Below are positions 11,300 through 64,000 of a stretch of DNA of 64,000 nucleotides, piece after piece. The stretch covers positions 16,334 to 80,333 of the forward strand of contig JAFUTO010000002.1 of assembly GCA_017484205.1 (NCBI GenBank), in the 5' to 3' direction. The stretch comes from Bacilli bacterium. Its GTDB lineage: Bacteria > Bacillota_I > Bacilli_A > RF39 > UBA660. The first letter of the stretch is position 1; each line of letters begins with the position of its first letter. Below the pieces are notes generated by a model. The model was not told where the DNA came from, made no database searches, and saw only the letters and a list, made by a program, of their open reading frames with translations. A program made the translations under genes and the position numbers.

Positions 11300-11327
11300 A
11301 AGCCAAATTGAGATTTTTTTTGAATAT

Positions 11328-11348
11328 TAAGAGCTTATGCTCTTTTTA
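11328..11348 (+). terminator. Intrinsic terminator/attenuator immediately upstream of the RBS of 11365..11943
   Basis: aagagc-ttat-gctctt hairpin followed by ttta; lies between the candidate promoters and the ATG at 11365. Confidence 0.5.
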
Positions 11349-11364
11349 CGTTGTAGGTGATAAT

Positions 11365-47073: not shown

Positions 47074-50000
47074 ATGAAGATGCAAAGTAGTAAGTTTAAA
47101 GGAATTTTGTTATTTTTAGTAAGTTTTATGGTATTTACAATTGTACCAACGGTTGCTAAAGCTGCAACATACAATTTTAGTTTTAGCGCATACAATTGTG
47201 GTAATAGTACATATACAGAGGATGATATAATTGATAATTGTATTCTAGAATATTATGATGGCAATTTAGCAAAGCTAAATGATGGAGTCGTTGTAGATAC
47301 AGATAAATACATCATGCTAGTTTTGGAATACGAGTATACTAGCGGTACGGGTGCAGCAGTTTTATCAGTTGATACTTCATATGATAATACTTTTGTTGAA
47401 AATTTATCATTCACTCAAACAGCTATTGATGCGGATAACCCAATTTTTACAAGATCAATTGCTAGAAAATGGAATTCTTCAACAAGTGATACTGGTAGTT
47501 TAGTTGTATTAGCTTATGATTCAGACGATGAAACTTTGACTTATGATCCAGGTGCGATTGGATTTATGTTCTTCAAAGTAAAGGACACCGCACCAGCTGG
47601 TCAAACTTTTACGTTTGCTATATCTGATGATCCTGATGATACTCGTGTCAGTGATTCCACAGGTAATATACATATCGATTGGGCAGCTTCTCCAATATCT
47701 TTCAAGGTTGCTGGATCTGCAACTTCGACTGATACTTCTTTAAAAACTTTAAATGCTAAAGGAAGTAATGCAACTGATTATTCAATTTATATGGATAATG
47801 GTTATACAACTGAATTTAGTGCAGGAACATCAAATAGAACGTTCTATGCAGTAGTTCCATATGATGTTACTTCAATTACTTTAAATGGTGAAGTAACAGA
47901 TTCTGCTGCTCAATTTATTCCAGGAAATGGTACTACTTATAGTAGAAATCATAATTTAGATGTAGGAAATAATGAAATAACATTTAGAGTTACCGCACAA
48001 AGTGGTACTACTGAGGATTATTATATTAATGTCTATAGATTAAGTAATGATGCATCATTACAGACATTAACTACTTCAGGTAATGTTACATTGAATGGTT
48101 TTGCTTCAAATGTATATAGTTATGATATTTCAACTACTTATGCAACTGTTACAACAAATGTAACATCAAAACCTACTCATGAAAATGCTTTTGTTACAAA
48201 TAGTGAAGATGTATTATGGGATAAAAATACAAGTTCAGGTAGTTATACTCAAACTTTTGCTTTACCAGGTTTTGGTACTGATGTTAATACCAAAGTTGTC
48301 AAGGTACAAGCAGAAGATTGTTTAAGTGAATATGCAAGTGTTCCAGGTAATACTTGTCATACACAAGATTATACAATTAATGTTAGTAGATTAAATCCAT
48401 CTACAGATGCAACTTTAAAAGCATTAGCTGTTGATGGAACTTCAATATTTGTAGAAGGTACTACAGATTATGATCAAGGTTCACAACCATATTCTAAATC
48501 ATCAGCTGATATAACTGCTACAGCTAACGATTCAAAAGCTACAGTAGTTGCTTCAACTGTTGGAAATAAAACATTAAATGTTGGCGATAATACTATTACA
48601 GTTACGGTAGAAGCAGAGGATTGTAAGGTAATTACTGGTTCTAATCCAAGTGGTAGTTGTCATACACAAGATTATACAATTAAATTCTATAGAAGAAGTA
48701 ACAATGCTAATTTAAATACATTAGTTGTTACTGGAACAGGTGTATCTATGAATCCTGCATTTACGGATCATAGTTATGTTGGACCATATACTGTAAGTTA
48801 TCCATCAGGAGCAACATCTGTTAATGTCAAAGCAAGTGTTGAAGAAGAACATGCCACAATTAATATTACAGGTATCGAAGATGGTATTGACTATTCCAAT
48901 TTAAGTAATCAATTAAGCATAATTGTTACTGCAGAAGATGGTAATACTAAAACTTATGTATTAAGATTTAGTAAAGTATTATCTAGAGAGTCTAGACTTG
49001 ATAGTTTAACTGTTAGCGGTGTATCATTATCTCCATCACCATTTGATCCAGATACATATACATATTCTGGTAGTGTAGATGGTAATGTTGAAAAAGTAAC
49101 TATTGGTGCAACATTAAAAGATGCTGATAAATCAACATTTATGGAAGGCTATGGACCTAGAGAAGTTGAATTAAATTATGGTGATAATACATTCTATGTT
49201 AGAGTACAAGGTGAAGCAGATGATGCCACTAGTTCATATAATGTCACAATAACAAGAAATGAAAAAACAATTAAAACATTAAAAGAAATTTCAATTGATA
49301 GTGTACCTATTGATCCATTTGATCCAGACACAATTACTTATACTGTAGATCCAGTCGATTATTCAACAACTTCAGTTACAGTTAAAGCAGTTGTTACAGA
49401 AGGCAGTGATGCTACATATACAGTATTAAATCAATCAGGTGGTGTAGCCGTAGGTGGTGTTATTAACTTAAATACAGGTGATAATACTGTTACAATAAGA
49501 GTTAGAGCTCAAGATGGTTCTACTGGTGATTATACAGTAACTATACCAAGAGAAAAGAATAATGTTGCTACTGTAGATAGTGTAACCGTATTTGGTAATG
49601 CTGCTACATGTGATAACGATACAAGAAAATGTACTATTACAGTAACAAATGATCATTCATCAATCGCACCTACAGATGTGGTTGTAATTCCAACTGATTC
49701 TAGTGCTACAGTAACTAAACCTACAGATACAAGAAATTTAGTAGTATCTACTCCAAGTAATCCAAGAACTAATACTTATATCTTCAGTGTTAAAGCAGAA
49801 GATGGTGTTACTACAAAGGAATATGAATTAATTATTACAAGAGAAGCATCAGATGATGTATCTTTGAAAGAAGTATCAGTATTTACAAATGAAGGTCAAA
49901 CTTATAGATGTACAACATTTACTGGATTTGCATGTACAATTTCAGTACCAAGTACAACTACAGGTTATACACTTTCAGCTACACCTAATTCAGGCGCAGC

Positions 50001-53000
50001 AACTGTAGATGGTACAGGTTCATTTACTATGGATGGTGCATCTGATAGTAGTCAAATTAAGGTATTAACAGTAACAGCAGAAGATGAACATAGTCAAGTA
50101 TATCAAATTAAAATTGAAAGAAGTAAATCTACCAACGCTAATTTAAAGACTATTACTATTGATGGTGTAGAAATAGATGGCTTTGATGGAGTTAATAAAC
50201 AAAATTATACTGTTACTGTTCCTGGTACTACTGAAGCAATTACATTAGGCGCTGAAGTAGATGATACAGGAAAAGCAACTATCGAAAATAGTGATACTAT
50301 TTTAGGTAGAAAAGATCTTGTTTATGGATCAGAAGGAAATGTTTATACATTAAAAGTTATTGCTGAAGCTGGCGAAGGTTCTGTTAAAACATATACAGTT
50401 ACAGTAATAAGAAGTAATAATATAGATTCTACATTATCTATGATTCAAATAGGTGGTAGTAATTTAAATGGTTTTGCATCTAACACATATGCATATAACT
50501 ATAATGATACATATTATCAAGATTTAGGTAACGAAAACCAATTAGTAGTACCTTATAATAAAACTAGCATTACTTTGTTAGGTGTTCCTACAGATACCAC
50601 TTATGGAACAGTTAAATATAATGGTACTGCATCAACTGAAGCAACAACTATAAACTTAACAACAGGTGTTAATACTATTACTGTAACGGGTGTTGCGCAT
50701 GATACAAGTAAAACAACAGATTATGTATTAAAAGTATTTAGAACATTGAATTCAAATAATTCAATTACTAAATTAGAGGTTGCTGGTGTAGAAGCTACAT
50801 GGGATGATGAAAACAACAAATATACAGTTACTGTTCCAAATAGTGTTGATAGTGTTGGAACATTAAATGTTAATGTCACATTACCTGCAAAACAAGTAGC
50901 TACAGACCCTGATGCAACTGTAACGATACCAACTATGTCATTAACAACAGATAACGTTAATAATTATCAAATTATTGTTACATCAGAAGCTGGTGAAGCA
51001 AAAACATATCCAGTTGAAATAACAAGAGCAAAATCAACTGTAAAAACATTAACTGCATTAGCTGTAACAAATGGTGCGTTCAGTCCGTCATTTACTCCAA
51101 ACACTAATGAATATACAGTTATTGTACCTGCTTCAACTACTGAATTTACAGTAAGTTATACTAAAGCAGATCCTAAAGAAACTGTAACTGGTGCTAGAAG
51201 ATATGACATGACTTCAAGCAATATGGATGTTATAGTTGAAGTTCAAGCTGAAGATCCAGAAGAACCAGTTAATAGATATACATTACATATTGAAAGAACT
51301 GAGTCAGCAGTTAATACTTTAAGTAGTATTGTTGTTAATTCAGGAGAGACTATTTATGCTTTAAATCCATTATTTAGTCCAGATAAAACTTCATATGTAG
51401 TAGAAGTACCTGGTACTGTATCACAAGTTAATATTACAGCTACACCTACAGACAGTAGATCTACTGTAACAGGTGATGGTGTTAAAACAGTAAGTAGGGG
51501 TGATAATACATTTACTATTACATCTACTTCTGAAACAAATACATTTATTAATTATACTGTTAATGTTAAAGTATTAGATAAAACAATAAATACATTAAAT
51601 AATATAACAGTAACTTTGGATGATGGAACAGTTTTACCATTAAGTCCTAATTTTGCATCTGATATTCAAAATTATACAATTGCTGATCAACCATATAGTG
51701 TTACTACAGTAAATATCGGTGTAGAAAGAACTGATAGTGATTCAACAGTTAAAATTGGTAATGTTGATTATACAATGACTGATGAAACTAATGGTATTAC
51801 AGTACCACAAAGTCTAAACGCTGGTGCGAACACAATAAAAGTTGTTGTTACAGCACAGGATGGAACTTCTAGTACATATAATATCCGTATTAGAAGAGAA
51901 GAAAACGATGATGCTACTTTAAGGACATTAAATGTTTCAGGTGGATCTTTATCACCTACATTTGCTCCTGAAATTACATCATATTCAGTAGAATTAGATA
52001 GTGATGTAACTACATTATCTCCATCAGAAGTAACTGCAATAGCTACTGATTCAAATGCAACAGTAACAAAAGATCCAACAGTTACAATAAGTGATGATGG
52101 AACTACTATATATGATATCTTAGTAACAGCTCAAAATGGTACAACAAAAACATATTCAATAACTGTATCTAGAAAGAAAAGTGCTGATGCTAAGTTGAAG
52201 AGAGTAGATTTGACTGGCGCTTCTATTAGTCCATCATTTACTCCAAACAATGATCAATATACATTAAATATTTCTTCAACATCAACAGAGTTTACAATTC
52301 AAGGTATTCCTAATCATGATAATGCTACTGTGTCATATAATGGTGTAGGATCAACAGAAGGTATTACATATCCTGCTTCAACTGATACTGTTTCTATTAC
52401 AGTAACAGCAGAAGATGGAAGTACAACAAAGACGTATACATTTAATGTTGTAACTGCTACTGCAAGAGACGCTACATTAGCTGACTTGGAAGTATTAGGA
52501 TATACTTTAGATCCTGAATTTGATACAACTACTGTTGTATATGATATTGGTGAAGTTGAGTTTGGAACAGATAGTTTAACTATTATTGCGACTCCTACAA
52601 ATACTAATGCTACAGTTAATTATTATGTAGATGGTGTTAAGCAAGATGATAATGTCGTTGATTTACCACAAGCATTAGGTAGTAAGAGTATTACAATTGA
52701 AGTTGTACCTGCTACAGGTTCAAAAGCGCAAGCTAAGTATTATTCTGTTAATTATGACATGGTTACATCTAGAAATAATTATTTAGCTACATTAATACCA
52801 AGTAGTGGTACATTAAGCCCATCATTCTCAAAAGGTAGAACTGCTTATTCAATGACAGTACCTTATGATACTGAAAGCATATCATTCCAAGTAACTACTG
52901 ATAATAACCAATCATCAGTAAGTAATGATGGTACAACATTTATGTTTACAGATGCTGAACCAGCTACTTATGTATATAATGATTTGCGTGTAGGCACAAA

Positions 53001-54150
53001 TACAATGACATTTACGGTAAGAGCTGCTAATGGTGCATTAAGAGATTATGTTGTAACTGTTACAAAGACAGGTAGAACACCATCTTCAGATGTTTATTTA
53101 TCTAGTTTAAAAGTAGATAATTATGAGTTGACACCTAGTTTTGATAAAACCGAAGAGGTTTATTCAATAGGAAGTATCCCTTATAGTTTACAAACATTAA
53201 CAGTAAGGGCTACAGGTAATTATGCAGGTCAAACAATTACGTATAGTTTAAATGGAACTGATGTTACAGCAAATGATGATGGAAGTGCAACAATTAATGT
53301 TGCTGGAACTACAGGATCTAATTTGATAAATGTTCATGTTGTAGCTGAAAACGGAACATCTACAAAAAATTATCAAATATCTTATACTAAGACGCCATCA
53401 TCTAATGCTTACTTAGCTAGTATGATAGATGGATTACATAAGATTACAAATTTCAATAAAGAAACAAAAGATTATGAAATTAGTGTTGATAGTACAGTTG
53501 GTACATTAACATTAACATTAACTACTGAAGAAGAACATGCTACTATGACTATTAATGGTACTAAACGTACTCATCAATGGGCATATGAAGCTACGAACCT
53601 AAAAGGTGGAACTAATGTTGTTGTAATATTAGTAACAGCAGAAAATGGTGATACAGCAACTTATAAATTGACTATCAATAAAGAAGGTTCAAGTGAACTT
53701 ATAACTTCTGAAGAATTTGGACATATAATAGAAGATGGTTTCATAAAAACAGCAATATTAAATGAAACTATTGGTGATTTAATGTCTAATGAATTGGATA
53801 ATGATGTTGACATGTTACAAGTTTGGGATGCAGAAGAAACTGCTGAAATAAATGATACATCTACTAAAGTTGCTACTGGTCAAATAGTTAGACTAGTTGA
53901 TAGAACAACAGGTGCAGAATTGGATAGAAAAGTAGTAGTTGTTAGGGGAGATACTGATGGCAATGGTTCAATCAATGTATTAGACTCAATTCCAATTGTT
54001 AACCAATCATTAAGAAGATTAACATTAGTTGGTGCCTATGCTCAAGCAGCAGATGTTGATAAGAATGGTTCAATCAATGTATTAGACTCAATTCCAATTG
54101 TTAATCATTCATTAAGAAGAACATTTATAGATTATACTATAGGAAGTTAA
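47074..54150 (+). CDS. Putative adaptor scaffoldin (2358 aa): N-terminal cohesin-like module + ~24 cadherin-like beta-sandwich domains + C-terminal dockerin
   Basis: Signal peptide; N-terminal ~180 aa ending ...DPGAIGFMFFKVKDTAPAGQTFTFAIS, which resembles the cohesin C-terminal strands; repeated cadherin-like units; C-terminus GDTDGNGSINVLDSIPIVNQSLRR...ADVDKNGSINVLDSIPIVNHSLRR (dockerin duplicated segments). Confidence 0.7.
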   Translation: MKMQSSKFKGILLFLVSFMVFTIVPTVAKAATYNFSFSAYNCGNSTYTEDDIIDNCILEYYDGNLAKLNDGVVVDTDKYIMLVLEYEYTSGTGAAVLSVDTSYDNTFVENLSFTQTAIDADNPIFTRSIARKWNSSTSDTGSLVVLAYDSDDETLTYDPGAIGFMFFKVKDTAPAGQTFTFAISDDPDDTRVSDSTGNIHIDWAASPISFKVAGSATSTDTSLKTLNAKGSNATDYSIYMDNGYTTEFSAGTSNRTFYAVVPYDVTSITLNGEVTDSAAQFIPGNGTTYSRNHNLDVGNNEITFRVTAQSGTTEDYYINVYRLSNDASLQTLTTSGNVTLNGFASNVYSYDISTTYATVTTNVTSKPTHENAFVTNSEDVLWDKNTSSGSYTQTFALPGFGTDVNTKVVKVQAEDCLSEYASVPGNTCHTQDYTINVSRLNPSTDATLKALAVDGTSIFVEGTTDYDQGSQPYSKSSADITATANDSKATVVASTVGNKTLNVGDNTITVTVEAEDCKVITGSNPSGSCHTQDYTIKFYRRSNNANLNTLVVTGTGVSMNPAFTDHSYVGPYTVSYPSGATSVNVKASVEEEHATINITGIEDGIDYSNLSNQLSIIVTAEDGNTKTYVLRFSKVLSRESRLDSLTVSGVSLSPSPFDPDTYTYSGSVDGNVEKVTIGATLKDADKSTFMEGYGPREVELNYGDNTFYVRVQGEADDATSSYNVTITRNEKTIKTLKEISIDSVPIDPFDPDTITYTVDPVDYSTTSVTVKAVVTEGSDATYTVLNQSGGVAVGGVINLNTGDNTVTIRVRAQDGSTGDYTVTIPREKNNVATVDSVTVFGNAATCDNDTRKCTITVTNDHSSIAPTDVVVIPTDSSATVTKPTDTRNLVVSTPSNPRTNTYIFSVKAEDGVTTKEYELIITREASDDVSLKEVSVFTNEGQTYRCTTFTGFACTISVPSTTTGYTLSATPNSGAATVDGTGSFTMDGASDSSQIKVLTVTAEDEHSQVYQIKIERSKSTNANLKTITIDGVEIDGFDGVNKQNYTVTVPGTTEAITLGAEVDDTGKATIENSDTILGRKDLVYGSEGNVYTLKVIAEAGEGSVKTYTVTVIRSNNIDSTLSMIQIGGSNLNGFASNTYAYNYNDTYYQDLGNENQLVVPYNKTSITLLGVPTDTTYGTVKYNGTASTEATTINLTTGVNTITVTGVAHDTSKTTDYVLKVFRTLNSNNSITKLEVAGVEATWDDENNKYTVTVPNSVDSVGTLNVNVTLPAKQVATDPDATVTIPTMSLTTDNVNNYQIIVTSEAGEAKTYPVEITRAKSTVKTLTALAVTNGAFSPSFTPNTNEYTVIVPASTTEFTVSYTKADPKETVTGARRYDMTSSNMDVIVEVQAEDPEEPVNRYTLHIERTESAVNTLSSIVVNSGETIYALNPLFSPDKTSYVVEVPGTVSQVNITATPTDSRSTVTGDGVKTVSRGDNTFTITSTSETNTFINYTVNVKVLDKTINTLNNITVTLDDGTVLPLSPNFASDIQNYTIADQPYSVTTVNIGVERTDSDSTVKIGNVDYTMTDETNGITVPQSLNAGANTIKVVVTAQDGTSSTYNIRIRREENDDATLRTLNVSGGSLSPTFAPEITSYSVELDSDVTTLSPSEVTAIATDSNATVTKDPTVTISDDGTTIYDILVTAQNGTTKTYSITVSRKKSADAKLKRVDLTGASISPSFTPNNDQYTLNISSTSTEFTIQGIPNHDNATVSYNGVGSTEGITYPASTDTVSITVTAEDGSTTKTYTFNVVTATARDATLADLEVLGYTLDPEFDTTTVVYDIGEVEFGTDSLTIIATPTNTNATVNYYVDGVKQDDNVVDLPQALGSKSITIEVVPATGSKAQAKYYSVNYDMVTSRNNYLATLIPSSGTLSPSFSKGRTAYSMTVPYDTESISFQVTTDNNQSSVSNDGTTFMFTDAEPATYVYNDLRVGTNTMTFTVRAANGALRDYVVTVTKTGRTPSSDVYLSSLKVDNYELTPSFDKTEEVYSIGSIPYSLQTLTVRATGNYAGQTITYSLNGTDVTANDDGSATINVAGTTGSNLINVHVVAENGTSTKNYQISYTKTPSSNAYLASMIDGLHKITNFNKETKDYEISVDSTVGTLTLTLTTEEEHATMTINGTKRTHQWAYEATNLKGGTNVVVILVTAENGDTATYKLTINKEGSSELITSEEFGHIIEDGFIKTAILNETIGDLMSNELDNDVDMLQVWDAEETAEINDTSTKVATGQIVRLVDRTTGAELDRKVVVVRGDTDGNGSINVLDSIPIVNQSLRRLTLVGAYAQAADVDKNGSINVLDSIPIVNHSLRRTFIDYTIGS

Positions 54151-54166: not shown

Positions 54167-56359
54167 ATGAAAAATATGAAAAAATTAAAATCATTGGTTG
54201 CCATAGTACTAGGATTTTTCCTAGTCTATGCAACTACTGTATTTGCAGCAGGATCTGTAACTGTAGGAATGGGTGGCAATTCATCAGTTGCTGTTGGTTC
54301 TACTATTGATGTTACAATTTACCTTGATAACGTTAATGCAAGTACAGAAGGTATAATTGCTTTTCAAGGTGATATTCATTTTGATACAAATTATTTAGAA
54401 TTAGTAACAGTAACTCCTGCAAGTAGTCCTTATTCATTTGATTATGAAGTAGGTGGAACTGATGTTGTATATTTAACTGGACTTGATACTTCATTTAGAA
54501 AAGGTATCAAATCCAATACAACAATTTATACTTTCACATTTAAAGCATTAAAAAATGGTACTACAACTGTAACATTAGAAAATGTTATAGCAGGTGATCC
54601 TAGTGGTGACGTAAGTGCAAATAACTCAAGTAAAGTAATTAATATTGGTGGTAGTTCAAGTACACCAACAGTTAAAAGTAGCGATGCTGATTTAAAATCA
54701 TTAAGTGTTTCTGGTTATAATATTAGTCCTGCTTTTGATGCAGCAACAACTACTTATACACTTACTGTACCAAGTGATGCAAGCAATGTTACTATTGCAG
54801 CATTACCTTCAAGTGGTAAAGCTTCTGTTAGTGGTGTAGGTTCTAAAACTTTATCAGATGGATTAAATTCAGTAGAAATTACAGTAACAGCAGAAGATGG
54901 TACTAAAAAGACATATACAGTTAATATTACAAAAGAAGCAAGTACAGTTCCAACAACTAAGAGTAGTGATGCTACACTAAAATCATTGGAATTGGCTGGT
55001 GGATATACTGTATCACCAACATTTACTTCTGATAAAACTACATATTCATTAACTGTTCCAAATAATGTTACTTCATTAGATGTTACAGCAATTGCAAATG
55101 ATGCAAATGCTAAAGTAGAAGTAACTGGTAATACAAACTGGAAAACAGGAGTTAACCCTGTTAAAGTTACAGTAACAGCAGAAGATGGTACAACTAAAGT
55201 ATATACAGTTAACGTAACAAGAAAAGATAATACTTCAGCTGTAAGTGGAGGTACTACTCCTACTAAGAGTTCTAATAATTATTTAAAAGAATTATCTACT
55301 AAAAATGGTGATATAAGTCCAGTATTTAGTAAAACAACAAGTAATTATAGTGTTACTGTTCCATATAATGTTTCTAGATTAGACTTAAATTATTTAGTGG
55401 AAGATGAAAAATCTTCAGTTAAAATCAATGGTAATAGTGATTTTAAAGTAGAATCAGTTAACACTGTTGAAGTTGTTGTAACAGCAGAAGATGGAAGTCA
55501 AAGAACTTATACAATTAATGTTACAAGATCTTCAAAAACAGGTGAAAACTTATTAGATGATATTATTATTGGTGGTGGAAGTACAAGTTTAAATCCAAAA
55601 TTTAAACCAACAACTTATGATTATGGTATTGAATTAGATCGTAATACAACTAGTATTGATATTACACCTATAACAAGTAATCCAAATGCTAAAGTGGAAG
55701 TAACAGGTAATGAAAATTTACAAGAAGGAAATAATACTATTTTGATTAAAGTTACTGATCAAGAAGGCTTTGTTCAATATTATAAAATTAACGCTTATAA
55801 GAAAGCTACAAATGGAATTGTTCTATTTGGTATAGATTTTCCCAGGTGGATGGTTTATACGGCTATTGCGTTGGTTCCTGCCTTATTAATCCTATTAGTA
55901 CTTGCTAAAAAGAAACAAGAAAATAAGGAATTAGCACCAGCAGCTTCAACAATTGAATTCAAGCCAGAATTTAATTTCTCATCTAAAAATGGTACGGATG
56001 ATGATTATGTTGAATCAGGTGGCGTATTAAACCAAGTAGTTAAAGAAAAAGAGGAATCTCTTGAAAAAACAGCTGTTGATATTAGAGATATTCCAACTAG
56101 TGCAGTTGGTATTACTGAAGGAATATCTACTGGATTAAATAAGAGTATGATGGAAGAATATCCAAGAAAGGTTATAGAAGAAGAGCCTGAGCAAATACCT
56201 TATGATCCATATGATGATAAAGTTACAAAAGAAGAACTTATCGATGCGATTAATGAAAAAAATCCAGAAAAGTTAAAAATACTATATCAACAAGAAATGT
56301 TAAATAGAGAAAAAGAAAGAGTAAAAGAAGCTGAATATCATGAAAGACATAGAAGATAA
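54167..56359 (+). CDS. Membrane-anchored cohesin-domain protein (cohesin + five cadherin-like domains + TM helix + ~170-aa acidic cytoplasmic tail)
   Basis: 730 aa; signal peptide; cohesin-like domain (GSVTVGMGGNSSVAVGSTIDVTIYLDNV...IHFDTNYLELVTV...TIYTFTFKALKNGTTTVTLENV); TM segment WMVYTAIALVPALLILLVLA followed by KKKQENKE...; lies 16 nt downstream of the adaptor gene. Confidence 0.7.
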   Translation: MKNMKKLKSLVAIVLGFFLVYATTVFAAGSVTVGMGGNSSVAVGSTIDVTIYLDNVNASTEGIIAFQGDIHFDTNYLELVTVTPASSPYSFDYEVGGTDVVYLTGLDTSFRKGIKSNTTIYTFTFKALKNGTTTVTLENVIAGDPSGDVSANNSSKVINIGGSSSTPTVKSSDADLKSLSVSGYNISPAFDAATTTYTLTVPSDASNVTIAALPSSGKASVSGVGSKTLSDGLNSVEITVTAEDGTKKTYTVNITKEASTVPTTKSSDATLKSLELAGGYTVSPTFTSDKTTYSLTVPNNVTSLDVTAIANDANAKVEVTGNTNWKTGVNPVKVTVTAEDGTTKVYTVNVTRKDNTSAVSGGTTPTKSSNNYLKELSTKNGDISPVFSKTTSNYSVTVPYNVSRLDLNYLVEDEKSSVKINGNSDFKVESVNTVEVVVTAEDGSQRTYTINVTRSSKTGENLLDDIIIGGGSTSLNPKFKPTTYDYGIELDRNTTSIDITPITSNPNAKVEVTGNENLQEGNNTILIKVTDQEGFVQYYKINAYKKATNGIVLFGIDFPRWMVYTAIALVPALLILLVLAKKKQENKELAPAASTIEFKPEFNFSSKNGTDDDYVESGGVLNQVVKEKEESLEKTAVDIRDIPTSAVGITEGISTGLNKSMMEEYPRKVIEEEPEQIPYDPYDDKVTKEELIDAINEKNPEKLKILYQQEMLNREKERVKEAEYHERHRR

Positions 56360-57698: not shown

Positions 57699-58500
57699 AA
57701 CGATACAATAAGAACTATATGGGGTAAGGAAGAAGAAAAATACTTTATAAGTGTTGTTGACTTAGTTGGTGTTGTTTCAGAAAGTAAAGCTAAACAAGCA
57801 TATTGGAGAAAATTGAAACAACGTTTAAAAGAAGAAGGAAATGAAACCGTGACAAATTGTCACGCTTTGAAACTTAAAGCACAAGATGGTAAGTATCGTA
57901 TGACTGATGTTGTTGATATTGAAGGAATGTTTAGAATTATTGAATCAATTCCTAGTAAAAATGCAGATCCAATTAAACAATGGTTAGCAAAATTAGGAAG
58001 TGAGAGAATAGATGAAACATTTGATCCTTCATTAGCGGCACAAAGAGCGATAGACTTATATAGATCCAAAGGTTATGATGAAGAATGGATTAGTAAAAGA
58101 GTTAAGTCTTTACAAGAGAGAAAAGGGTTAACTGATTTGTGGAAAGATGCGGGCATTAATGATATTGAATATGCAATTCTAACAAATGAAATTTACAAAG
58201 AATGGTCTGGCATGACTGCAAAACAATATAAATCATTTAAAGGACTTAGGAAAGAATCATTAAGAGATAATTATGTCTGATGTTGAAGTCGCTTTAACTG
58301 AACTATCAGAAATAGCAACTAAAGAACTTGTAAAAACTCAGAAGCCAGTTGGGTTAAAAGAAAATGTTAGGGTGGCAAAAGTTGGTGGTCATACTGCGAA
58401 AGTAGCTCGTGACTATTTAGAAGAAAATATAGGCTCATCAGTCGTCACAAAAGATAATAAATTAAATTATAGATACAATGATACAAAAGAGTTAGAATAA
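57699..58500 (+). pseudogene. Degraded paralog of the dinD-like gene 22939..23778 (N-terminally truncated, +1 frameshift near 58271)
   Basis: In-frame homology begins without a start codon (NDTIRTIWGKEEEKYFISVVDLVGV versus the intact copy's SEIRSVWDSDKEDYYFSVVDVIGV); frame breaks at agagataaTtatgtctga versus the intact copy's agagataatatgtctga; the C-terminal 75-aa remainder is in the +1 frame. Confidence 0.65.
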
Positions 58501-58548: not shown

Positions 58549-59427
58549 ATGAATCCGATAGAAGAATTTAAAAAATACTTACTTATTGATCGACATTATA
58601 GTGATAATACTATATCTAGTTATATGAATGATTTAGATATATATTTTGAGTATCTAAGCAAAAAGAAATTAGATTATAAAAATATCAATACTAACGATAT
58701 AAGAGAGTATTTAAAATATATAAATAACAAAGACGAAAGAACAGTAGCTCACCAAATTTCTGTTTTAAGAGGATTTTATAAATACTTAATAATGGAAAAT
58801 ACTATAAAAATAAGCCCTATGGAAAATATTGATTTACCTAAATTATCAAAGAAATTACCCAATGTACTTAGTGTAGAAGAAGTAGATAAATTATTAGATA
58901 TTAATCTTAATACAATGTATGATTATAGAAATAAAGCGATGTTAGAATTAATGTATGCTACTGGTCTACGTGTATCAGAGTTAGTTAATTTAAAATTAGA
59001 AGATGTTGATTTAAATAACGCGATTGTAAGGACAATGGGCAAAGGATCTAAGGAACGTATTGTTCCATTTGGTGATTATGCTTTAAAGGCATTATATGTA
59101 TATATTAATGAATATAGAGGATTATTTTTTAAGAAAGAAGTATCTGAATATTTATTTTTAAATAATCATGGTAAACAAATGACTAGACAAGGTTTCTTTA
59201 AAATGCTTAAAGGTATTGCATTGGAAAAAGGAATAGATGTGGAATTATCACCACATACTTTAAGACATTCATTTGCAACTCATTTGCTTAATGGTGGAGC
59301 TGATTTAAGAAGTATACAAGAGATGTTAGGACATTCTAATCTATCAACTACTGAAATATATACTAATATAAGTAGAGAAGAAATTAAGAAAAAATATCAT
59401 GAAACACATCCACATGGAGGTAAATAA
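58549..59427 (+). CDS. Tyrosine recombinase XerC/XerD family
   Basis: Conserved R..HxxR..Y catalytic region (HTLRHSFATHLLNGGADLRSIQEMLGHSNLSTTEIYT); N-terminal SAM-like domain; XerD versus XerC not resolved. Confidence 0.8.
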   Translation: MNPIEEFKKYLLIDRHYSDNTISSYMNDLDIYFEYLSKKKLDYKNINTNDIREYLKYINNKDERTVAHQISVLRGFYKYLIMENTIKISPMENIDLPKLSKKLPNVLSVEEVDKLLDINLNTMYDYRNKAMLELMYATGLRVSELVNLKLEDVDLNNAIVRTMGKGSKERIVPFGDYALKALYVYINEYRGLFFKKEVSEYLFLNNHGKQMTRQGFFKMLKGIALEKGIDVELSPHTLRHSFATHLLNGGADLRSIQEMLGHSNLSTTEIYTNISREEIKKKYHETHPHGGK

Positions 59428-60086
59428 TGGACTTATTTCAATATCAAGATTTAAAATATAAAGAATTTAATGATAAAATCCAAAATCAGAGCGTTTATCC
59501 TACTATTGGTATAAGAATACCTATTTTGAGAAAAATAGCCAGGGAGGTATCTAAAAACGATTATTTGGACTATATTAATAATAGACATACATATTGGGAA
59601 GAATATTTAATACATGGACTTATTATTGGATATATTAAGATACCTTTTAAAGATAAATTAATCCTATTAGATAATTTTATACCATATATATATGATTGGG
59701 CATTAGTTGATACTACAGTATCTAATTTAAAAGACTTTAAAAATAATCAAAGTGATGGATATAAATATATATTAAAACTTATTAATGGCAATACCTTTAG
59801 TATTAGATTTGGTTTAGTTTTGTTATTAGACTATTATATTAATGATGAATATATAGATAAAATATTTGATATAGTTTTAAATATAAAAAATGATGATTAT
59901 TATGTTATGATGGCCAAGGCATGGTTGTTATCATATACATATATGAAATATAAAGAAAAGACTATTGTCATTTTAAAAGATAAAAGATTATCTAGAAATA
60001 CAGTAAATAAAACAATATCAAAAGTATGTGATTCATATAGAGTTAGTACTATAGATAAAGAAGAAATTAAAAGATTAAGAAGATAG
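59427..60086 (+). CDS. DNA alkylation repair protein (AlkD/AlkC-like HEAT-repeat family)
   Basis: 219 aa; helical-repeat pattern typical of DNA_alkylation (PF08713)-type proteins; call by resemblance only. Confidence 0.45.
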   Translation: MDLFQYQDLKYKEFNDKIQNQSVYPTIGIRIPILRKIAREVSKNDYLDYINNRHTYWEEYLIHGLIIGYIKIPFKDKLILLDNFIPYIYDWALVDTTVSNLKDFKNNQSDGYKYILKLINGNTFSIRFGLVLLLDYYINDEYIDKIFDIVLNIKNDDYYVMMAKAWLLSYTYMKYKEKTIVILKDKRLSRNTVNKTISKVCDSYRVSTIDKEEIKRLRR

Positions 60087-60094
60087 GTGATAGT

Positions 60095-61024
60095 GTGAAA
60101 GCATTAGATGGAATGCTGGGTTTCGCGATAGGGGACGCAATGGGTGTGCCTATTGAGTTTATGGATAGAGAAATATTACTCGCAAAACCAGTTACTAAAA
60201 TGTTAGGTTATGGAAATTATGAAATAGAAAAAGGCCATTGGTCAGATGATACATCAATGTCTTTAGCAACCATGGATTCTTTAACTAAATGTAAGAAACT
60301 TGATTTAAATGATATGATGAAAAGATTTTGCAAATGGGTTAATGATGGAGAATACTCATCTACTGGGTTTGCTTACGATATAGGTGTATGTACTAAAATG
60401 GCTTTGATAAGATATTATAATGATAAAATGGCACCTTTAAAGTGTGGAGGTAAAGGTATTTCTGAAAATGGTAATGGGTCTTTGATGAGAATGTTTCCAA
60501 TAGCTTATTTTGCGTATAAAAAAGGATTAACAAATGAACAAATTGAATATTTAGCAATTACTTCTTCTAGTATTACACACGCACATGAAATATCTACATT
60601 ATCATGTTATATCTATTTGATGTATATAAATTTTATATTAAATGGATATGATAAATACGATAGTTATAATAAATTAAAAGAAATAGATTATAGTATGTTT
60701 AAAAGAGAAACATTAAAACCATTTAAACGTATATTAGGTTCTGATATATCTAAATTAACTATAGATGATATAAAATCTACAGGATATGTATTATATACAT
60801 TAGAAGCAGTATTATGGGTTATTTTAAACACAAATAACTATGCTGAAGCAATTGTTGGTGCAATAAACCTCGGTGGTGATACTGATACTATAGGCGCGAT
60901 TACTGGTTCTATAGCTGGATTATTATATGGAACTAAATCAATACCTGAAAATTGGATTAATGATTTAAAAGAATATAATTATTTACAAAAGATGTGTTCT
61001 AAATTTGAAGCATCATTAAAATAA
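60095..61024 (+). CDS. ADP-ribosylglycohydrolase family protein (DraG-like)
   Basis: N-terminal GMLGFAIGDAMGVPIEF and C-terminal GGDTDTIGAITGSIAGLLYG metal-binding motifs; GTG start with RBS aggtga. Confidence 0.75.
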   Translation: MKALDGMLGFAIGDAMGVPIEFMDREILLAKPVTKMLGYGNYEIEKGHWSDDTSMSLATMDSLTKCKKLDLNDMMKRFCKWVNDGEYSSTGFAYDIGVCTKMALIRYYNDKMAPLKCGGKGISENGNGSLMRMFPIAYFAYKKGLTNEQIEYLAITSSSITHAHEISTLSCYIYLMYINFILNGYDKYDSYNKLKEIDYSMFKRETLKPFKRILGSDISKLTIDDIKSTGYVLYTLEAVLWVILNTNNYAEAIVGAINLGGDTDTIGAITGSIAGLLYGTKSIPENWINDLKEYNYLQKMCSKFEASLK

Positions 61025-61124
61025 AATGTTATATAAAATAACATTTTTTTCATTTATAATTCTTTTTTATTTCACAATCTTTTCACATAAAATATCTATA
61101 CTTATTAGTGAAGGGAGAAAGAAT

Positions 61125-61808
61125 ATGGAAGAATTTAGAAGAGTTGAAATTAAATATTTACTAGATGAGGATCAATATCAAAGTTTAAAGAAAGAATTAG
61201 ATACTTATATTAAGCCAGATATATATCCGAATTCAGTAATTTGTAATATATATTTTGATAATGATGATTATGAATTAATCAATAAGTCAATAGATAAACC
61301 AATATATAAAGAAAAGGTAAGACTTAGAAGTTATAATACGCCTAATCATGATAGTATGGTATTTTTAGAAATAAAGAAAAAATATGAAGGTGTTGTTGGT
61401 AAAAGAAGAATTGCAGCTAGATTAGATGATATGAATGATTATTTATATAATAATAAAGAATTAAAAGATTCAGTAAATTATAGAGAAATTGATAACGTAA
61501 TAAAAAGAAACAATCTAAAGCCAAAAGTATATGTTGCTTATAATAGAGAGGCGTATTTAGGTGTAGAAGATGAATCTTTGCGAATTACGTTTGATAGTAA
61601 CTTAAGAACTAGAACTCTAGATTTAGATTTAAGTATGGGAGATTCTGGAAAACTATATTTTGATAAACCTATGTATATAGTTGAAATCAAAACATTAGAT
61701 TCAGTACCACTATACTTATCAAATATACTAAGTAAATTAAAGATATATCCTACTTCATTTTCGAAGATAGGAGCTATATATGAGAAAGGGATGATTTATA
61801 ATGTTTAA
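61125..61808 (+). CDS. VTC-domain (polyphosphate-polymerase-like) protein
   Basis: Starts RRVEIKYLL; overall VTC/CYTH-like pattern; start chosen at MEEFRR (RBS agggagaaag), not the ORF-track 61026. Confidence 0.5.
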   Translation: MEEFRRVEIKYLLDEDQYQSLKKELDTYIKPDIYPNSVICNIYFDNDDYELINKSIDKPIYKEKVRLRSYNTPNHDSMVFLEIKKKYEGVVGKRRIAARLDDMNDYLYNNKELKDSVNYREIDNVIKRNNLKPKVYVAYNREAYLGVEDESLRITFDSNLRTRTLDLDLSMGDSGKLYFDKPMYIVEIKTLDSVPLYLSNILSKLKIYPTSFSKIGAIYEKGMIYNV

Positions 61809-62457
61809 TAGTATAATAGATGGAAGTATAAGTTTACAAAGTGCATTAATAATTTTTATTAGCGCTGTAATATTAGGTTTAATTATTTCAGTAATTCATA
61901 TGAAATCAGATAAATGTAGTAAGAATATGGCAATAACACTAGCTACATTACCATTTTTAGTATCAATTGTAATTATTATGGTAAATGGTAATTTAGGTAC
62001 AGGTATCGCAGCTGTAGGTGCATTTAGTCTAGTTAGATTTAGATCAATACCTGGTAATTCTAAAGATATAGCTATGATATTCTTTGCAATGGCTGTAGGT
62101 TTAGCTTTAGGTACAGGTTATGTTGGATATGCTGTTATTGTTACAATAATTGGTTCGATTTTGATATTTATATTATCAAATACTAAATATGGTGAAAGTA
62201 ATAATAGTAGAATTCTTAGATTAACAGTACCGGAGGATGTTGATTATACTAAAGAATTCAATAAAATATTTGAAAAATATACAACTAGACATAATTTAGT
62301 AAAAGTTAAAACAACTAATTTAGGAAGTTTATTTGAATTAGCGTATGAAATTGATTTAAAAGGTAATGAAAAAGAGTTTATAGATGAACTTAGAACTCGT
62401 AATGGTAATTTAAAAGTAGCAATAGAAAGGAATGGTTTAAATAATGAAGAACTATAA
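61801..62457 (+). CDS. DUF4956-family membrane protein
   Basis: LVRFRSIPGNSKDIAMIFFAMAVGLALGTG motif with four TM helices; overlaps the VTC gene by 8 nt. Confidence 0.5.
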   Translation: MFNSIIDGSISLQSALIIFISAVILGLIISVIHMKSDKCSKNMAITLATLPFLVSIVIIMVNGNLGTGIAAVGAFSLVRFRSIPGNSKDIAMIFFAMAVGLALGTGYVGYAVIVTIIGSILIFILSNTKYGESNNSRILRLTVPEDVDYTKEFNKIFEKYTTRHNLVKVKTTNLGSLFELAYEIDLKGNEKEFIDELRTRNGNLKVAIERNGLNNEEL

Positions 62458-63967
62458 AATTATTATAGTTGTCATTATATTATTATTAGCTGGTGGAGTA
62501 GGGTACTATTTTATAAGTAAATATGATAGTACCATACCTCAAAGTGCGGTTAAAAATGCAACTAAATATGATGGTAATAAAACTACTATTAATTTAGATG
62601 ATTTAACATATGATGGTACTGGATTATCAATTGAAAATAATACTATATATATTGTATATGGTGGCACATATGAATTATCTGGCACAACCGAAGCTAATAT
62701 AGTAATTGAAACTATAGATGAAGAAGATGTTTATTTAATATTCAATGGAGTTAGTATAACTTCAGAAGAAGCCCCTATTTATATTTCGCAAGGTGATGTA
62801 TATATAACATTAGAAGATGGAACTACTAATTATATTGAATATACAAAAAAATATAGCGAAACAGAAGAAATCGATGGAGCAATATATGCATCTGATGATT
62901 TAGTGATAGATGGTACTGGATCATTAGAGGTAAAATCTACATATGATGGTATTGTATCAAAAGATACATTAACAATAGAAAATGGTACTTATGTAATCAA
63001 TGCCTCTGATGATGGTATAAGAGGTAAAGATATCTTAACTATCAATAATGGTAATTTTGAAATTACATCAGGTGGAGATGCTTTAAAATCAACAAATGAC
63101 ACAGATGCAGAATTAGGCAATATTATAATAAATGGTGGTACTTTTGAAATAACTGCATCAGGTGATGGTATAGCTGCAAATACAAATGTTACTATAGTAG
63201 ATGGTACATTCAATATCAAAACAGGTAATGGATATACTGCAACATCAAAAGCTGGTGACTTTGGAATGTGGAATAATACAACTAATAAAGATTCGAATGA
63301 TGAAAGCATCAAAGGTATTAAGGCTGGTAATTTAATCACTATAAGTGGTGGCACATTTACTTTAAATACTGAAGATGATGGGATCCATTCTAATGGTAAT
63401 ATTACAATAAGTGGTGGTAAATTTACTATTTCAAGTACTGATGATGCTATTCATGCAGACGGATTAGTAGAAATTAATGGTGGCGAATTTACAATTACTG
63501 CAAGTGAAGGAATTGAAGCTACTTATGTAAAAATAAATGATGGTAATATTACTATTGATGCAACTGACGATGGTATAAATGCAGGAAATAAATCTAATAG
63601 TTATTCAACTACTGTAGAGATTAATGGTGGAAATGTTACTATAAAAATGGCCAGCGGTGATACTGATGGTATTGATTCTAATGGTAATTTATATATTAAT
63701 GGTGGTACAATTAATATCACTTGTAATTCTCCATTTGATTATGATGGTGAAGCTAAATATAACGGAGGAACACTTATTGTTAATGGTAGTCAAACAACAT
63801 CTATTACTAATCAAATGATGGGTGGCCAAATGGGTGGAATGCAAGGCAATATGAATATGGCTCCACAAGAAGGAACTCAAGATAACATGCCACAAGGTAA
63901 TATGAATCGTGGAATGCAAGAAAATGGTCAAAATAATATGCAACAAGGTAGGGGAGGAAGAAGATAA
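62444..63967 (+). CDS. Membrane-anchored extracellular parallel beta-helix repeat protein (carbohydrate-binding-like) with M/Q/G/N-rich C-terminal tail
   Basis: N-terminal TM anchor; ~10 repeats of the [ITxxGG.FTI...DDGI.(A/S)] type typical of right-handed beta-helix; tail GGQMGGMQGNMNMAPQEG...; overlaps the DUF4956 gene by 14 nt. Confidence 0.55.
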   Translation: MKNYKIIIVVIILLLAGGVGYYFISKYDSTIPQSAVKNATKYDGNKTTINLDDLTYDGTGLSIENNTIYIVYGGTYELSGTTEANIVIETIDEEDVYLIFNGVSITSEEAPIYISQGDVYITLEDGTTNYIEYTKKYSETEEIDGAIYASDDLVIDGTGSLEVKSTYDGIVSKDTLTIENGTYVINASDDGIRGKDILTINNGNFEITSGGDALKSTNDTDAELGNIIINGGTFEITASGDGIAANTNVTIVDGTFNIKTGNGYTATSKAGDFGMWNNTTNKDSNDESIKGIKAGNLITISGGTFTLNTEDDGIHSNGNITISGGKFTISSTDDAIHADGLVEINGGEFTITASEGIEATYVKINDGNITIDATDDGINAGNKSNSYSTTVEINGGNVTIKMASGDTDGIDSNGNLYINGGTINITCNSPFDYDGEAKYNGGTLIVNGSQTTSITNQMMGGQMGGMQGNMNMAPQEGTQDNMPQGNMNRGMQENGQNNMQQGRGGRR

Positions 63968-64000
63968 TTCTTCCTTTTCTTTTATGAAAATTATGTGAAA

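Follow-up and report, generated by a model that had tools for sequence, protein, structure and literature searches.

Within the 64,000-nucleotide stretch of DNA analysed here (the window), an operon of three overlapping genes encodes a soluble VTC-family triphosphate-tunnel (TTM) protein, a DUF4956 membrane protein and a membrane-anchored right-handed beta-helix protein of the Cthe_2159 family, and this operon could constitute a membrane-bound polyphosphate (polyP) polymerase system of the Vtc4 type whose output would be used outside the cytoplasmic membrane, a reading to which a probability of about 0.4 can be given. To our knowledge, textbooks derive bacterial polyP from PPK1 and PPK2 only and present VTC as a eukaryotic machine. 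The end product in common with PPK1 and PPK2 would be polyP made from a nucleoside triphosphate; however, these enzymes are cytoplasmic or peripheral, their folds and mechanisms are unrelated to VTC, and we know of no PPK that is coupled to extracytoplasmic partners.

The three-gene arrangement is far from chance, since in a sample of 80 species genomes (80 loci) anchored on DUF4956 the VTC gene was found directly upstream of DUF4956 in 79 and a Cthe_2159 homologue was present in the locus in 68, with 54 of the 80 having it immediately downstream, within 100 nt of the DUF4956 stop. Anchoring on the beta-helix gene instead gave co-occurrence in 4 of 4 cases. The first-pass annotation had described a cluster whose co-conservation in other genomes could be examined, and the triad was indeed recovered across Bacillota and Saccharibacteria. 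In more than 500 of the species genomes scanned, a Vtc4-like enzyme is linked with one protein in the membrane and another at the surface. Gut or rumen bacteria make up most of the hosts, among which Firmicutes, Enterococcus and the genome-reduced Saccharibacteria epibionts are frequent. In some genomes the operon carries inserts, either NAGPA or GT2-GtrA(-NAGPA), and the recurrent third partners are all extracytoplasmic, namely the anchored beta-helix, NAGPA or GT2-GtrA-NAGPA, and secreted CotH. The VTC-DUF4956 pair stands without a beta-helix gene, among unrelated neighbours, in 11 of the 80 loci, which implies that the pair can work alone, possibly inside the cell.

Two-component systems flank the cluster in 37 loci; their matches to PhoPR or any other equivalog lay far below the cutoffs and hence no link to phosphate sensing is claimed. 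No CAZyme gene recurs beside the cluster, and the ADP-ribosylglycohydrolase, DNA-alkylation-like and XerD-like genes upstream are not conserved neighbours. Past the downstream end of the window lie genes for a ZIP transporter and for a protein resembling thioredoxin. Three apparent VTC-DUF4956 fusions (P0429, P0438 and P0392) were considered as Rosetta-stone evidence and set aside, as each comprises truncated halves of both domains and are probably deletions or assembly artefacts. None of the three proteins had a match in NCBIfam, and none had a match in PADLOC, by which an anti-phage defence system was discarded.

The layout of the operon is given in Table 1. The three genes are coupled, as described at first pass, with overlaps of exactly 8 nt and 14 nt, and all lie on the + strand. 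The most likely start of gene 1 is ATG 61125, because it is preceded by the GGGAG Shine-Dalgarno element and because the 227-aa product appears in independent gene calls on two other contigs (L001, L002). A longer open reading frame from 61026 with a hydrophobic N-terminus was rejected, having no Shine-Dalgarno sequence and being unused by the gene callers; its extra codons are AT-rich and non-conserved. With mechanical ORF calls from the first start codon, the VTC/DUF4956 overlap of -8 is by far the commonest value; more than 35 of the other 79 loci have it, and it recurs from Lachnospiraceae to Saccharibacteria. By mechanical ORF calls, the DUF4956/beta-helix junctions range from -77 to +60 nt, mostly from -22 to +30. 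The hairpin and T-run at the distal end, detected at L001 6033-6060 and placed in the window by an offset of 57917, constitute the probable end of the operon. An Rfam search found no regulatory RNA near the operon, and scanning for promoters gave no useful signal against the AT-rich background (36 sites vs 41.5 expected).

Table 1. Features of the operon, with positions in the window.
Feature	Position	Strand	Basis or remark
Shine-Dalgarno-like GGGAG, 7 nt 5' of ATG 61125	61113..61117	+	sequence reading
Gene 1, VTC/triphosphate-tunnel (TTM) protein, 227 aa, soluble	61125..61808	+	no TM segment
8-nt overlap ATGTTTAA, VTC stop/DUF4956 start, translational coupling	61801..61808	+	ORF calls
Gene 2, DUF4956 membrane protein, 218 aa	61801..62457	+	Pfam and AF2 model
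DUF4956 membrane domain	61834..62181	+	helices aa 12-36, 41-60, 65-80, 87-104, 108-127
DUF4956 C-terminal ACT/ferredoxin-like domain, cytoplasmic	62206..62430	+	beta-alpha-beta-beta-alpha-beta, aa 136-210
14-nt overlap, DUF4956 stop/beta-helix start	62444..62457	+	ORF calls
Gene 3, Cthe_2159-family right-handed beta-helix protein, membrane-anchored, 507 aa	62444..63967	+	
N-terminal signal-anchor helix, aa 4-26	62453..62521	+	hydropathy 2.73; AF2 helix 4-26
Beta-helix ectodomain, aa 47-451, pI about 4.05	62582..63796	+	
Disordered G/M/Q/N-rich C-terminal tail ending GRGGRR, aa 456-507	63809..63964	+	pLDDT <50, aa 461-507
Terminator-like hairpin and T-run across gene 3 stop codon	63950..63987	+	L001 match, window sequence

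The product of gene 1 falls into the Pfam family VTC and not CYTH, and the VTC domain proposed for it at first pass was borne out by a PF09359 match above the gathering score (E 1.1e-44, 153 bits vs a cutoff of 23, profile positions 2-226 of 235). VTC is the only Pfam domain in this 227-aa protein, in which no SPX domain was found, and yeast Vtc4 was the top PDB match of its profile search (E 9e-14). Invariant in 26 homologues are R6, E8, K10, K62, E63, K64, R66, R68, E82, K84 and K86, and likewise K93, R94, R95, Y139, R141, R153, D157, E187, K189, S213 and K214. In Vtc4, the residues needed for polyP synthesis are K200, R264, R266, K281, Y359, R361, S457 and K458, with E426 holding the Mn ion and K458 being the single residue that tells active Vtc4 from inactive Vtc2 and Vtc3 (Liu 2023). 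In the profile alignment, K10, R66, R68, K84, Y139 and R141 align with Vtc4 K200, R264, R266, K281, Y359 and R361. The invariant E187-x-K189 and F-S213-K214 motifs follow the order and spacing of Vtc4 E426 and S457/K458, within a segment that HMMER left unaligned. Since neither phmmer with the fragment nor the profile (E up to 10) aligned the C-terminal third of the protein to Vtc4, we infer the equivalence of E187, S213 and K214 to E426, S457 and K458 from their order and spacing; by this mapping, the bacterial proteins keep a Lys at the K458-type position, which speaks for the polymerase model. Where the ExExK motif of CYTH proteins begins with Glu, the gene 1 product has R6, just as Vtc4 has R196. 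The acidic patch of hydrolytic TTMs is absent from Vtc4, whereas one Glu of this patch, E8, is kept in the gene 1 product where Vtc4 has T198. Retention of E8 makes a hydrolase possible and speaks against a polymerase. The same TTM tunnel supports many different activities, and in the literature we found no study assaying any bacterial VTC protein.

The eukaryotic VTC complex (Vtc4/Vtc3 or Vtc2/Vtc1) offers a close comparison, as both have a triphosphate-tunnel domain with common substrate-binding and catalytic residues and both tie a cytoplasmic enzyme obligatorily to a membrane component. However, the bacterial VTC is a separate protein without SPX and without a fused TM domain, with one added Glu (E8) in strand 1, and its activity and any export are putative. 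The yeast TTM domain works slowly when isolated; polyP synthesis goes together with membrane passage in that organism, and the product is delivered to the non-cytoplasmic side through a pore lined with K/R. DUF4956, with its five TM helices and ACT-like domain, is unrelated to the three-TM pore subunits and has no such lining: a three-TM VTC pore with a basic lining was found neither in the VTC protein, which lacks TM segments, nor in its DUF4956 partner. The bacterial VTC proteins have no TM segment and yet always come with a membrane partner, an observation in favour of a membrane-bound system.

The second gene product matches DUF4956 (PF16316, E 9.9e-15, 55.1 bits vs a cutoff of 30.6), and so the family named for it earlier was retrieved above the gathering score; the family profile gathers 5868 representatives at E up to 1e-3. 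The first-pass annotation had counted four TM helices, of which the membrane location stood and the helix number did not, since the AF2 model (pLDDT 76) has five helices followed by an ACT-like domain, and it is this modelled architecture that is probably correct. The positive-inside count gives an N-out, C-in topology, with conserved loops N62-G-N64 outside and R79-F-R81-S-x-P-G-x-S-K on the cytoplasmic side. No conserved charge, and in particular no intramembrane K/R, was found inside the helices of DUF4956; helices without a conserved basic residue, as compared with the K/R-lined pore of yeast, speak against polymer passage through this protein. A layout of five N-terminal TM helices and a cytoplasmic ACT-like C-domain is held in common with MgtC/SapB/YhiD (PF02308). 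Homology to MgtC is not established, as no MgtC match emerged for the window protein in Pfam (E up to 1) and its hhalign comparison with E. coli YhiD is non-significant (E 0.12, probability <1%), though the alignment is co-linear; one distant DUF4956 homologue, P0462, has a sub-threshold MgtC match (20.5 bits vs a cutoff of 31.4). ACT domains are ligand-sensing regulators, and MgtC proteins affect ATP and phosphate balance.

The third gene encodes a Cthe_2159-family protein (PF14262, E 7.8e-92), for which both the HMM match and a right-handed parallel beta-helix like that of PDB 4PEU/4PHB, the solved structures of the family, were found. An anchored beta-helix of about ten repeats had been foreseen; the fold and the anchor held, while the rungs number more than ten and the family had been missed. 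An N-terminal hydrophobic segment is present in 60 of 68 homologues, across which the ectodomain pI is about 4.1, and tails resembling that of gene 3 are common. The ectodomain carries a conserved ladder (D152, D174, D196, N218, D241/K290, D312, D334, E355, D376, D408, D432, with H315, H337, N379 and D411 in addition), in which one conserved acidic residue recurs about every 22 residues, i.e., per beta-helix rung. Cthe_2159 of C. thermocellum, a polysaccharide-lyase-like protein, was found through its binding of cellulose and polygalacturonate, or acid sugars such as polygalacturonic acid. Such binding is reported for this founding member only, and its published summary gives no catalytic activity for Cthe_2159 itself. 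The gene 3 product differs in being about twice as long and membrane-anchored, in its low-complexity tail ending in RR, and in that its most conserved D/H ladder occupies rungs past the 4PEU-aligned region. The founding gene comes after a CotH gene and not after VTC-DUF4956. Since it pairs with this CotH kinase inside an EPS locus, and not with cellulosome genes, the context of the family suggests that these proteins act on the envelope of the cell that makes them and not as binders of plant fibre.

Under the polyphosphate polymerase model, the soluble VTC protein would in all likelihood be an active triphosphate-tunnel enzyme, as the conservation of tunnel residues suggests, and there is an even chance that it polymerises the gamma-phosphate of ATP into polyP like yeast Vtc4. 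It would very probably be made stoichiometrically with DUF4956 and dock there, the coupling of the two genes being observed, and the R-F-R-S-x-P-G-x-S-K loop with the ACT-like domain of DUF4956 would bind and regulate the enzyme. The weakest step is that a DUF4956 oligomer would pass the nascent polyanion across the membrane, which is doubtful; such an oligomer would match the eukaryotic VTC pore in function and not by homology. On the outer side, the acidic beta-helix is tentatively proposed to act, by capture or processing, on the polyanion or else on an anionic polymer of the wall or an exopolysaccharide that has been modified with this polyanion. Capture might proceed via cations on the Asp/His ladder, as with pectate-binding beta-helices and polygalacturonate, and, given the acidity of the beta-helix, cations would have to bridge it to polyP for any binding to occur. 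Other lineages have as their extracytoplasmic partner a secreted CotH kinase, an NAGPA phosphodiester glycosidase or a glycoside hydrolase, such that the VTC-DUF4956 pair would form the core engine, to which the third gene adds a surface module that can be exchanged.

Earlier work had noted the VTC-DUF4956 pair, together with CotH, next to the pel loci of Gram-positive bacteria and had given it no function (Whitfield 2020), and so the first-pass statement that the function of such clusters is unknown stands in part, missing that the pair was already in print. The accessory set there consists of CotH, a 'poly-phosphate polymerase' and DUF4956 (and DUF4832), as in SIR_1592-1594 of S. intermedius (mBio 2025) and in NELoc-2 of C. 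perfringens. In S. intermedius, deletion of the DUF4956 or the CotH homologue alters Pel level and aggregation, a surface phenotype, whereas deletion of the VTC gene SIR_1593 had no reported effect on aggregation or Pel level (mBio 2025). The lack of a reported phenotype of this VTC mutant speaks against the polymerase model. The accessory set resembles the present operon in its adjacent VTC and DUF4956 genes, next to a gene for a secreted third protein, and in its link to surface polysaccharide, and differs in that the third gene encodes CotH there and the Cthe_2159 beta-helix here. Its authors did not find the three-gene synteny outside pel loci (mBio 2025); however, the VTC-DUF4956 pair is very widespread in our sample. 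With one Acetivibrio CotH query, which a remote CotH could escape, tblastn and phmmer found no CotH in either the window or the set of 80 loci. No pel genes were found among the recurrent neighbour families scanned with Pfam, or among the annotated flanks, which span roughly 58.5-61 kb of the window and, on L001, some 3.7 kb past the operon. Our literature search found no description of a Cthe_2159-containing version of the VTC-DUF4956 module, and the triad is put forward as a new version of this known module. The role in surface-polymer export or modification put forward by the first-pass annotation is partly supported, in that it fits the genomic context of pel and EPS loci, CotH beside the founding Cthe_2159 gene, and NAGPA or GT2-GtrA inserts.

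The output of the pair might also stay inside the cell. The cytoplasmic VTC protein would then make or turn over polyP in the service of polyP or ATP/phosphate homeostasis, with DUF4956 only tethering it to the membrane and regulating it through the ACT-like domain, and the beta-helix being a biochemically unlinked adhesin or glycan binder. The loci that have the pair alone, the missing pore charges of DUF4956, the ligand-sensing and regulatory nature of ACT domains and the neighbouring two-component systems all fit this explanation, as does the MgtC-like layout with the sub-threshold match of one homologue, though at the sequence level the MgtC homology is non-significant (hhalign and Pfam). 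However, a conserved gene order in which, across phyla, 54 of the 80 loci have an overlapping or near-abutting junction to the gene of a protein outside the cytoplasm is hard to credit to co-expression alone, and the alternative partners CotH and NAGPA are likewise extracytoplasmic, which leaves homeostasis a rather unlikely account. Adjacency is given no mechanistic meaning at all if the beta-helix is a surface binder of dietary fibre, of cellulose or pectin, as proposed for Cthe_2159. The binding of cellulose and polygalacturonate by Cthe_2159 and the preponderance of gut or rumen hosts agree with this; we consider it very improbable in view of synteny with overlapping reading frames conserved in 54 to 68 of 80 genomes, Saccharibacteria epibionts included, the absence of recurrent CAZyme genes beside the cluster, and the pairing of the founding gene, within an EPS locus, with CotH and not with cellulosome genes.

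Of somewhat lower standing than homeostasis, and improbable as a whole, is that the TTM protein hydrolyses, or transfers from, a triphosphate other than that for polyP synthesis and, with DUF4956, energises or signals the modification of a surface glycopolymer by a lyase- or esterase-like beta-helix. Candidate substrates would be an NTP, tripolyphosphate, or a lipid-linked or sugar-linked pyrophosphate, and CotH or NAGPA would do the modifying step in other genomes. The versatility of the TTM tunnel leaves room for such chemistry, E8 is left over from the hydrolytic acidic patch, and a conserved D/H/E/N cluster on rungs 310-435 is a candidate metal or catalytic site; GT2-GtrA-NAGPA inserts suggest polyprenyl-phosphate sugar chemistry, and the module is tied to pel and EPS loci. 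However, among characterised TTMs the residue set is nearest to Vtc4, of the active type with a putative Lys counterpart of K458, the Pfam family is VTC rather than CYTH, and the published summary of Cthe_2159 reports no catalysis.

A bolder form of the polymerase model, which we regard as unlikely, is that of a third, PPK-independent polyP route, in which a Vtc4-type polymerase seated on an MgtC-like membrane protein would make polyP from ATP and extrude it straight onto the surface for exchangeable partners, which would be the acidic, cation-loaded Cthe_2159 beta-helix in this operon and, in other genomes, CotH kinases or NAGPA phosphodiester glycosidases. These partners would bind the surface polyP or use it, be it as a wall polymer of anionic nature or to donate phosphoryl groups outside the cell. 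If true, bacteria would have here their first dedicated system for polyP secretion, and the enigmatic MgtC-like fold would gain a function related to transport. The Cthe_2159 family is re-framed by the CotH/EPS context of its founding member. Judged from sequence, the operon may represent a previously unrecognised bacterial way to make polyP and use it at the cell surface, and if the enzyme is active, this would open the questions of the route by which polyP gets to the surfaces of bacteria and to their hosts, what the true roles of secreted CotH kinases and of the Cthe_2159 'carbohydrate-binding' proteins are, and what the MgtC-like fold does.

The genes for the VTC protein, the DUF4956 protein (218 aa) and the Cthe_2159-family beta-helix protein (507 aa) probably form one three-gene operon, since a terminator-like hairpin spans the last stop codon. 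Domain calls for the first two, proposed in the first-pass annotation, were borne out by Pfam (VTC, PF09359, E 1.1e-44; DUF4956, PF16316, E 9.9e-15 and 55 bits, cutoff 30.6), the third product matches Cthe_2159 (PF14262, E 7.8e-92), and none of the three proteins matches an NCBIfam model. The overlaps of 8 nt (genes 1/2) and 14 nt (genes 2/3) read earlier from the sequence are exact in the window ORFs. ATG 61125 is most likely the start of gene 1, as it follows a GGGAG Shine-Dalgarno sequence by 7 nt, the resulting 227-aa product was called on two independent metagenome contigs with an identical operon, and homologues show no conservation of what the longer ORF adds at the N-terminus.

The sequence comes from the MAG of an uncultured 'Bacilli bacterium' and has a GC content of about 28%. 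Just past the window end, contig L001, which shares the operon, encodes a secreted, C-terminally anchored thioredoxin-like protein (Thioredoxin_2, 26.7 bits, slightly under cutoff) and a ZIP metal transporter, both unconserved in other loci. Upstream of the operon, two small ORFs of no known family precede packed genes for a XerD-like tyrosine recombinase, a DNA-alkylation-repair-like HEAT protein (24 bits) and an ADP-ribosylglycohydrolase, none of them a conserved neighbour of the cluster. A few kb upstream lie three consecutive giant surface-protein genes, whose products carry five ALK/LTK glycine-rich domains and Cadherin-like domains (first 2500 aa of the 7149-aa protein) or ten and four Cadherin-like beta-sandwich repeats (2358-aa and 730-aa proteins), and GC of the 26-40 kb stretch (0.33-0.38) exceeds that of its surroundings. 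The window also holds a full-length OLE (Ornate Large Extremophilic) RNA, whose end is overlapped by a 211-aa ORF that has no Pfam match at E up to 1e-5 and may encode an OLE-associated protein.

Features of the window and of compared loci (L handles)
Feature	Location	Strand	Remark
OLE RNA RF01071	10722-11322	+	378 bits, E 1.6e-107
ORF at OLE RNA end	11308-11943		211 aa
Giant surface-protein gene	25481-46930	+	7149 aa
Giant surface-protein gene	47074-54150	+	2358 aa
Giant surface-protein gene	54167-56359	+	730 aa
Two small ORFs	57813-58500		155 and 75 aa
Packed genes	58549-61024		XerD-like, HEAT, ADP-ribosylglycohydrolase
Gene 1, VTC	61026/61125-61808	+	two alternative starts
Gene 2, DUF4956	61801-62457	+
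Gene 3, beta-helix	62444-63967	+
Anchor helix, N-terminal	gene 3, aa 4-26		AF2
Long right-handed beta-helix	gene 3, aa 47-451		AF2
Disordered loop	gene 3, aa 275-286		AF2
Disordered tail	gene 3, aa 461-507		AF2
Low-complexity C-terminal tail	63809-63964 (aa 456-507)		G/M/Q/N/P-rich, ends ...GRGGRR
Terminator-like hairpin	63950-63977
Thioredoxin-like protein	L001 6156-6872		238 aa, CSHC (CxxC) motif
ZIP metal transporter	L001 6908-7627
CotH then Cthe_2159	L083 5556-8861; L085 5553-8870; L086 4003-8870
Two-component pair, examples	L020 6296-8189; L082 6168-8059; L089 2602-4492
NAGPA insert	L007 9650-12074; L073 11435-13811; L020, L021, L026, L031, L040, L063, L069, L071
Extra ORF	L088 5238-6014		258 aa, rumen-type contig

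A DUF4956-homologue profile, scanned against 185,579 species with a single genome for each, yielded at least 589 confirmed loci, of which the best 80 were analysed by phmmer of the three window proteins against all their ORFs. The proposed co-conservation indeed held: DUF4956 directly follows a VTC gene in 79 of 80 loci, the sole exception being at a contig edge, and a Cthe_2159 homologue is present in 68 of 80 (54 immediately downstream, 11 downstream after an insert, 3 divergent upstream), a figure of 85% that describes this subfamily, as the loci are the query's closest relatives (44-60% identity) in a family with 5868 cluster representatives at E up to 1e-3. When four beta-helix homologues on long contigs served as anchors instead, for which gene calls were independent and Pfam was precomputed, the order VTC-DUF4956-Cthe_2159 was present in all four. 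The 8-nt VTC/DUF4956 overlap recurs in more than 35 of 79 loci (mechanical first-start-codon ORF calls), spanning Lachnospiraceae, Oscillospiraceae, Erysipelotrichaceae, Enterococcus and Saccharibacteria (Nanosyncoccus), and is a signature of translational coupling. Since 11 of the 80 loci carry the VTC-DUF4956 pair alone among unrelated neighbours, the pair makes up the core, to which the beta-helix is often added. Three metagenomic 'fusions' (proteins P0429, P0438 and P0392), in which a truncated VTC domain precedes a truncated DUF4956 domain, probably reflect deletion or misassembly at the overlapping junction, not genuine fusion.

Invariant charged residues alternate along the predicted strands of the VTC protein in a 26-sequence alignment, a pattern characteristic of a triphosphate tunnel (TTM). 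A PDB profile search with the family retrieved only yeast Vtc4, Vtc2 and Vtc3, Vtc4 being the best (E 9e-14), and K10, R66, R68, K84, Y139 and R141 align with Vtc4 K200, R264, R266, K281, Y359 and R361, all of which, together with S457 and K458, are required for polyphosphate (polyP) synthesis, while E426 binds a Mn ion and K458 is the sole difference that sets the inactive Vtc2 and Vtc3 apart from Vtc4 (Liu et al.). The invariant bacterial E187-x-K189 and F-S213-K214 correspond in order and spacing to Vtc4, and E187 and S213/K214 would be equivalent to E426 and S457/K458, an equivalence that we infer because HMMER left this segment unaligned to Vtc4. Hydrolytic TTMs have an acidic patch that Vtc4 lacks (Martinez et al.). 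The first bacterial strand, R6-x-E8-x-K10, is Vtc4-like at its first position (R196) but keeps a Glu, E8, where Vtc4 has T198, and hence the bacterial protein may possibly be a hydrolase.

In the AF2 model of the DUF4956 protein (pLDDT 76), five helices are followed by a beta-alpha-beta-beta-alpha-beta domain at the C-terminus. Counts by the positive-inside rule in 70 homologues put the N-terminus on the outer side, and loops 36-42 and 79-88 with the C-terminal domain on the inner side. No conserved charge occurs within the helices of these homologues; the conserved polar motifs are N62-G-N64 in an outer loop and R79-F-R81-S-x-P-G-x-S-K in a cytoplasmic loop. The overall layout is like that of MgtC/YhiD, but sequence homology to that family was not significant; one distant homologue has an MgtC match below threshold. 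The beta-helix protein (AF2, pLDDT 88) has a very acidic ectodomain (pI 4.05; median 4.1 over 68 homologues) with a ladder of conserved acidic residues every ~22 residues (D152, D174, D196, N218, D241, then D312, D334, E355, D376, D408, D432) and a second stack (H315, H337, N379, D411), its invariant positions clustering in the distal rungs. Low-complexity tails occur in 37 of 64 full-length homologues (L005-L082), 27 of the 64 having at least two R/K among the last six residues, and the tail matched no recognised sorting signal.

The VTC-DUF4956 pair is already noticed in print: the accessory genes that Whitfield et al. list beside Gram-positive pel operons include cotH, a 'poly-phosphate polymerase', DUF4956 and DUF4832. 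NELoc-2 of C. perfringens combines VTC, a 226-aa membrane protein and CotH, and the S. intermedius pel locus encodes SIR_1592 (four TM helices, MgtC-like, plus ACT), SIR_1593 (polyP polymerase domain) and secreted CotH SIR_1594; loss of SIR_1592 or SIR_1594 changed the Pel level and halved aggregation, whereas SIR_1593 deletion had no reported effect on either, and the authors of that study did not find such synteny outside pel loci. In the literature, no paper with an assay of a bacterial VTC protein and no mention of the VTC-DUF4956-Cthe_2159 cluster was found. A new link found here is the adjacency of CotH and Cthe_2159: both the founding gene (PDB 4PEU) and the Acetivibrio orthologues are preceded, at a distance of ~25-50 nt, by the gene of a large secreted CotH (~800 aa, LTD + Fn3_assoc + CHB_HEX_C_1 + CotH). 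These loci have neither VTC nor DUF4956 within 8 kb, and the one in A. clariflavus is part of an EPS locus. The CotH gene of one genome in this set is split by an IS element. Searching with a single Acetivibrio CotH query found no CotH gene in the window or the 80 loci.

Some ten loci carry, between the DUF4956 and beta-helix genes, a NAGPA phosphodiester glycosidase, alone (~325 aa) or fused as GT2 + GtrA_DPMS_TM + NAGPA (~670 aa), together with a conserved membrane protein of 137 aa that Pfam does not match; these inserts are a hint of chemistry on polyprenyl-phosphate sugars or sugar phosphodiesters. In 37 of 80 loci, though not in the window, the cluster adjoins a gene pair for an OmpR-type response regulator and a HisKA/HATPase kinase, which could not be assigned to a known equivalog (best NCBIfam matches PhoB/RppA and PnpS/RppB, far under cutoffs). 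In L088, an extra ORF without Pfam match lies between the DUF4956 and beta-helix genes and overlaps both. Given the shared neighbourhoods (pel, NELoc-2, the EPS locus, NAGPA inserts), VTC-DUF4956, CotH, Cthe_2159 and NAGPA form a guild of interchangeable neighbours tied to cell-surface polymers.

The operon is tentatively read, with a probability of roughly 0.4, as encoding a polyP polymerase complex of Vtc4 type that is bound to the membrane and makes a product that acts beyond it. The VTC protein would be the polymerase, may form a complex with DUF4956 and would export polyP through it, and the beta-helix could bind the product via bridging cations. Export is the weakest link, because the basic residues that line the yeast VTC channel have no counterpart in DUF4956 and some loci have the pair by itself. 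A module for polyP or ATP-phosphate homeostasis inside the cell, co-expressed with an unrelated adhesin, is unlikely and is to be weighed against the finding that every recurrent partner is extracytoplasmic. Slightly less likely still is a non-polyP TTM activity feeding a surface-glycan-modifying enzyme, a reading to be set beside both the kept E8 and the shared Vtc4 residues. Cthe_2159 has been described as a binder of cellulose and polygalacturonic acid resembling PL9 lyases; a plain dietary-fibre-binding protein, its adjacency to VTC-DUF4956 being meaningless, is very improbable beside a gene arrangement that is real and non-random. A role in defence was not supported.

The surface-polymer export or modification suggested by the first-pass annotation is thus a reasonable guess, albeit unproven. 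The operon represents a new, widespread form, with a Cthe_2159 partner and independent of pel, of a known uncharacterised module, and the finding would gain in significance if polyP is indeed synthesised and exported.
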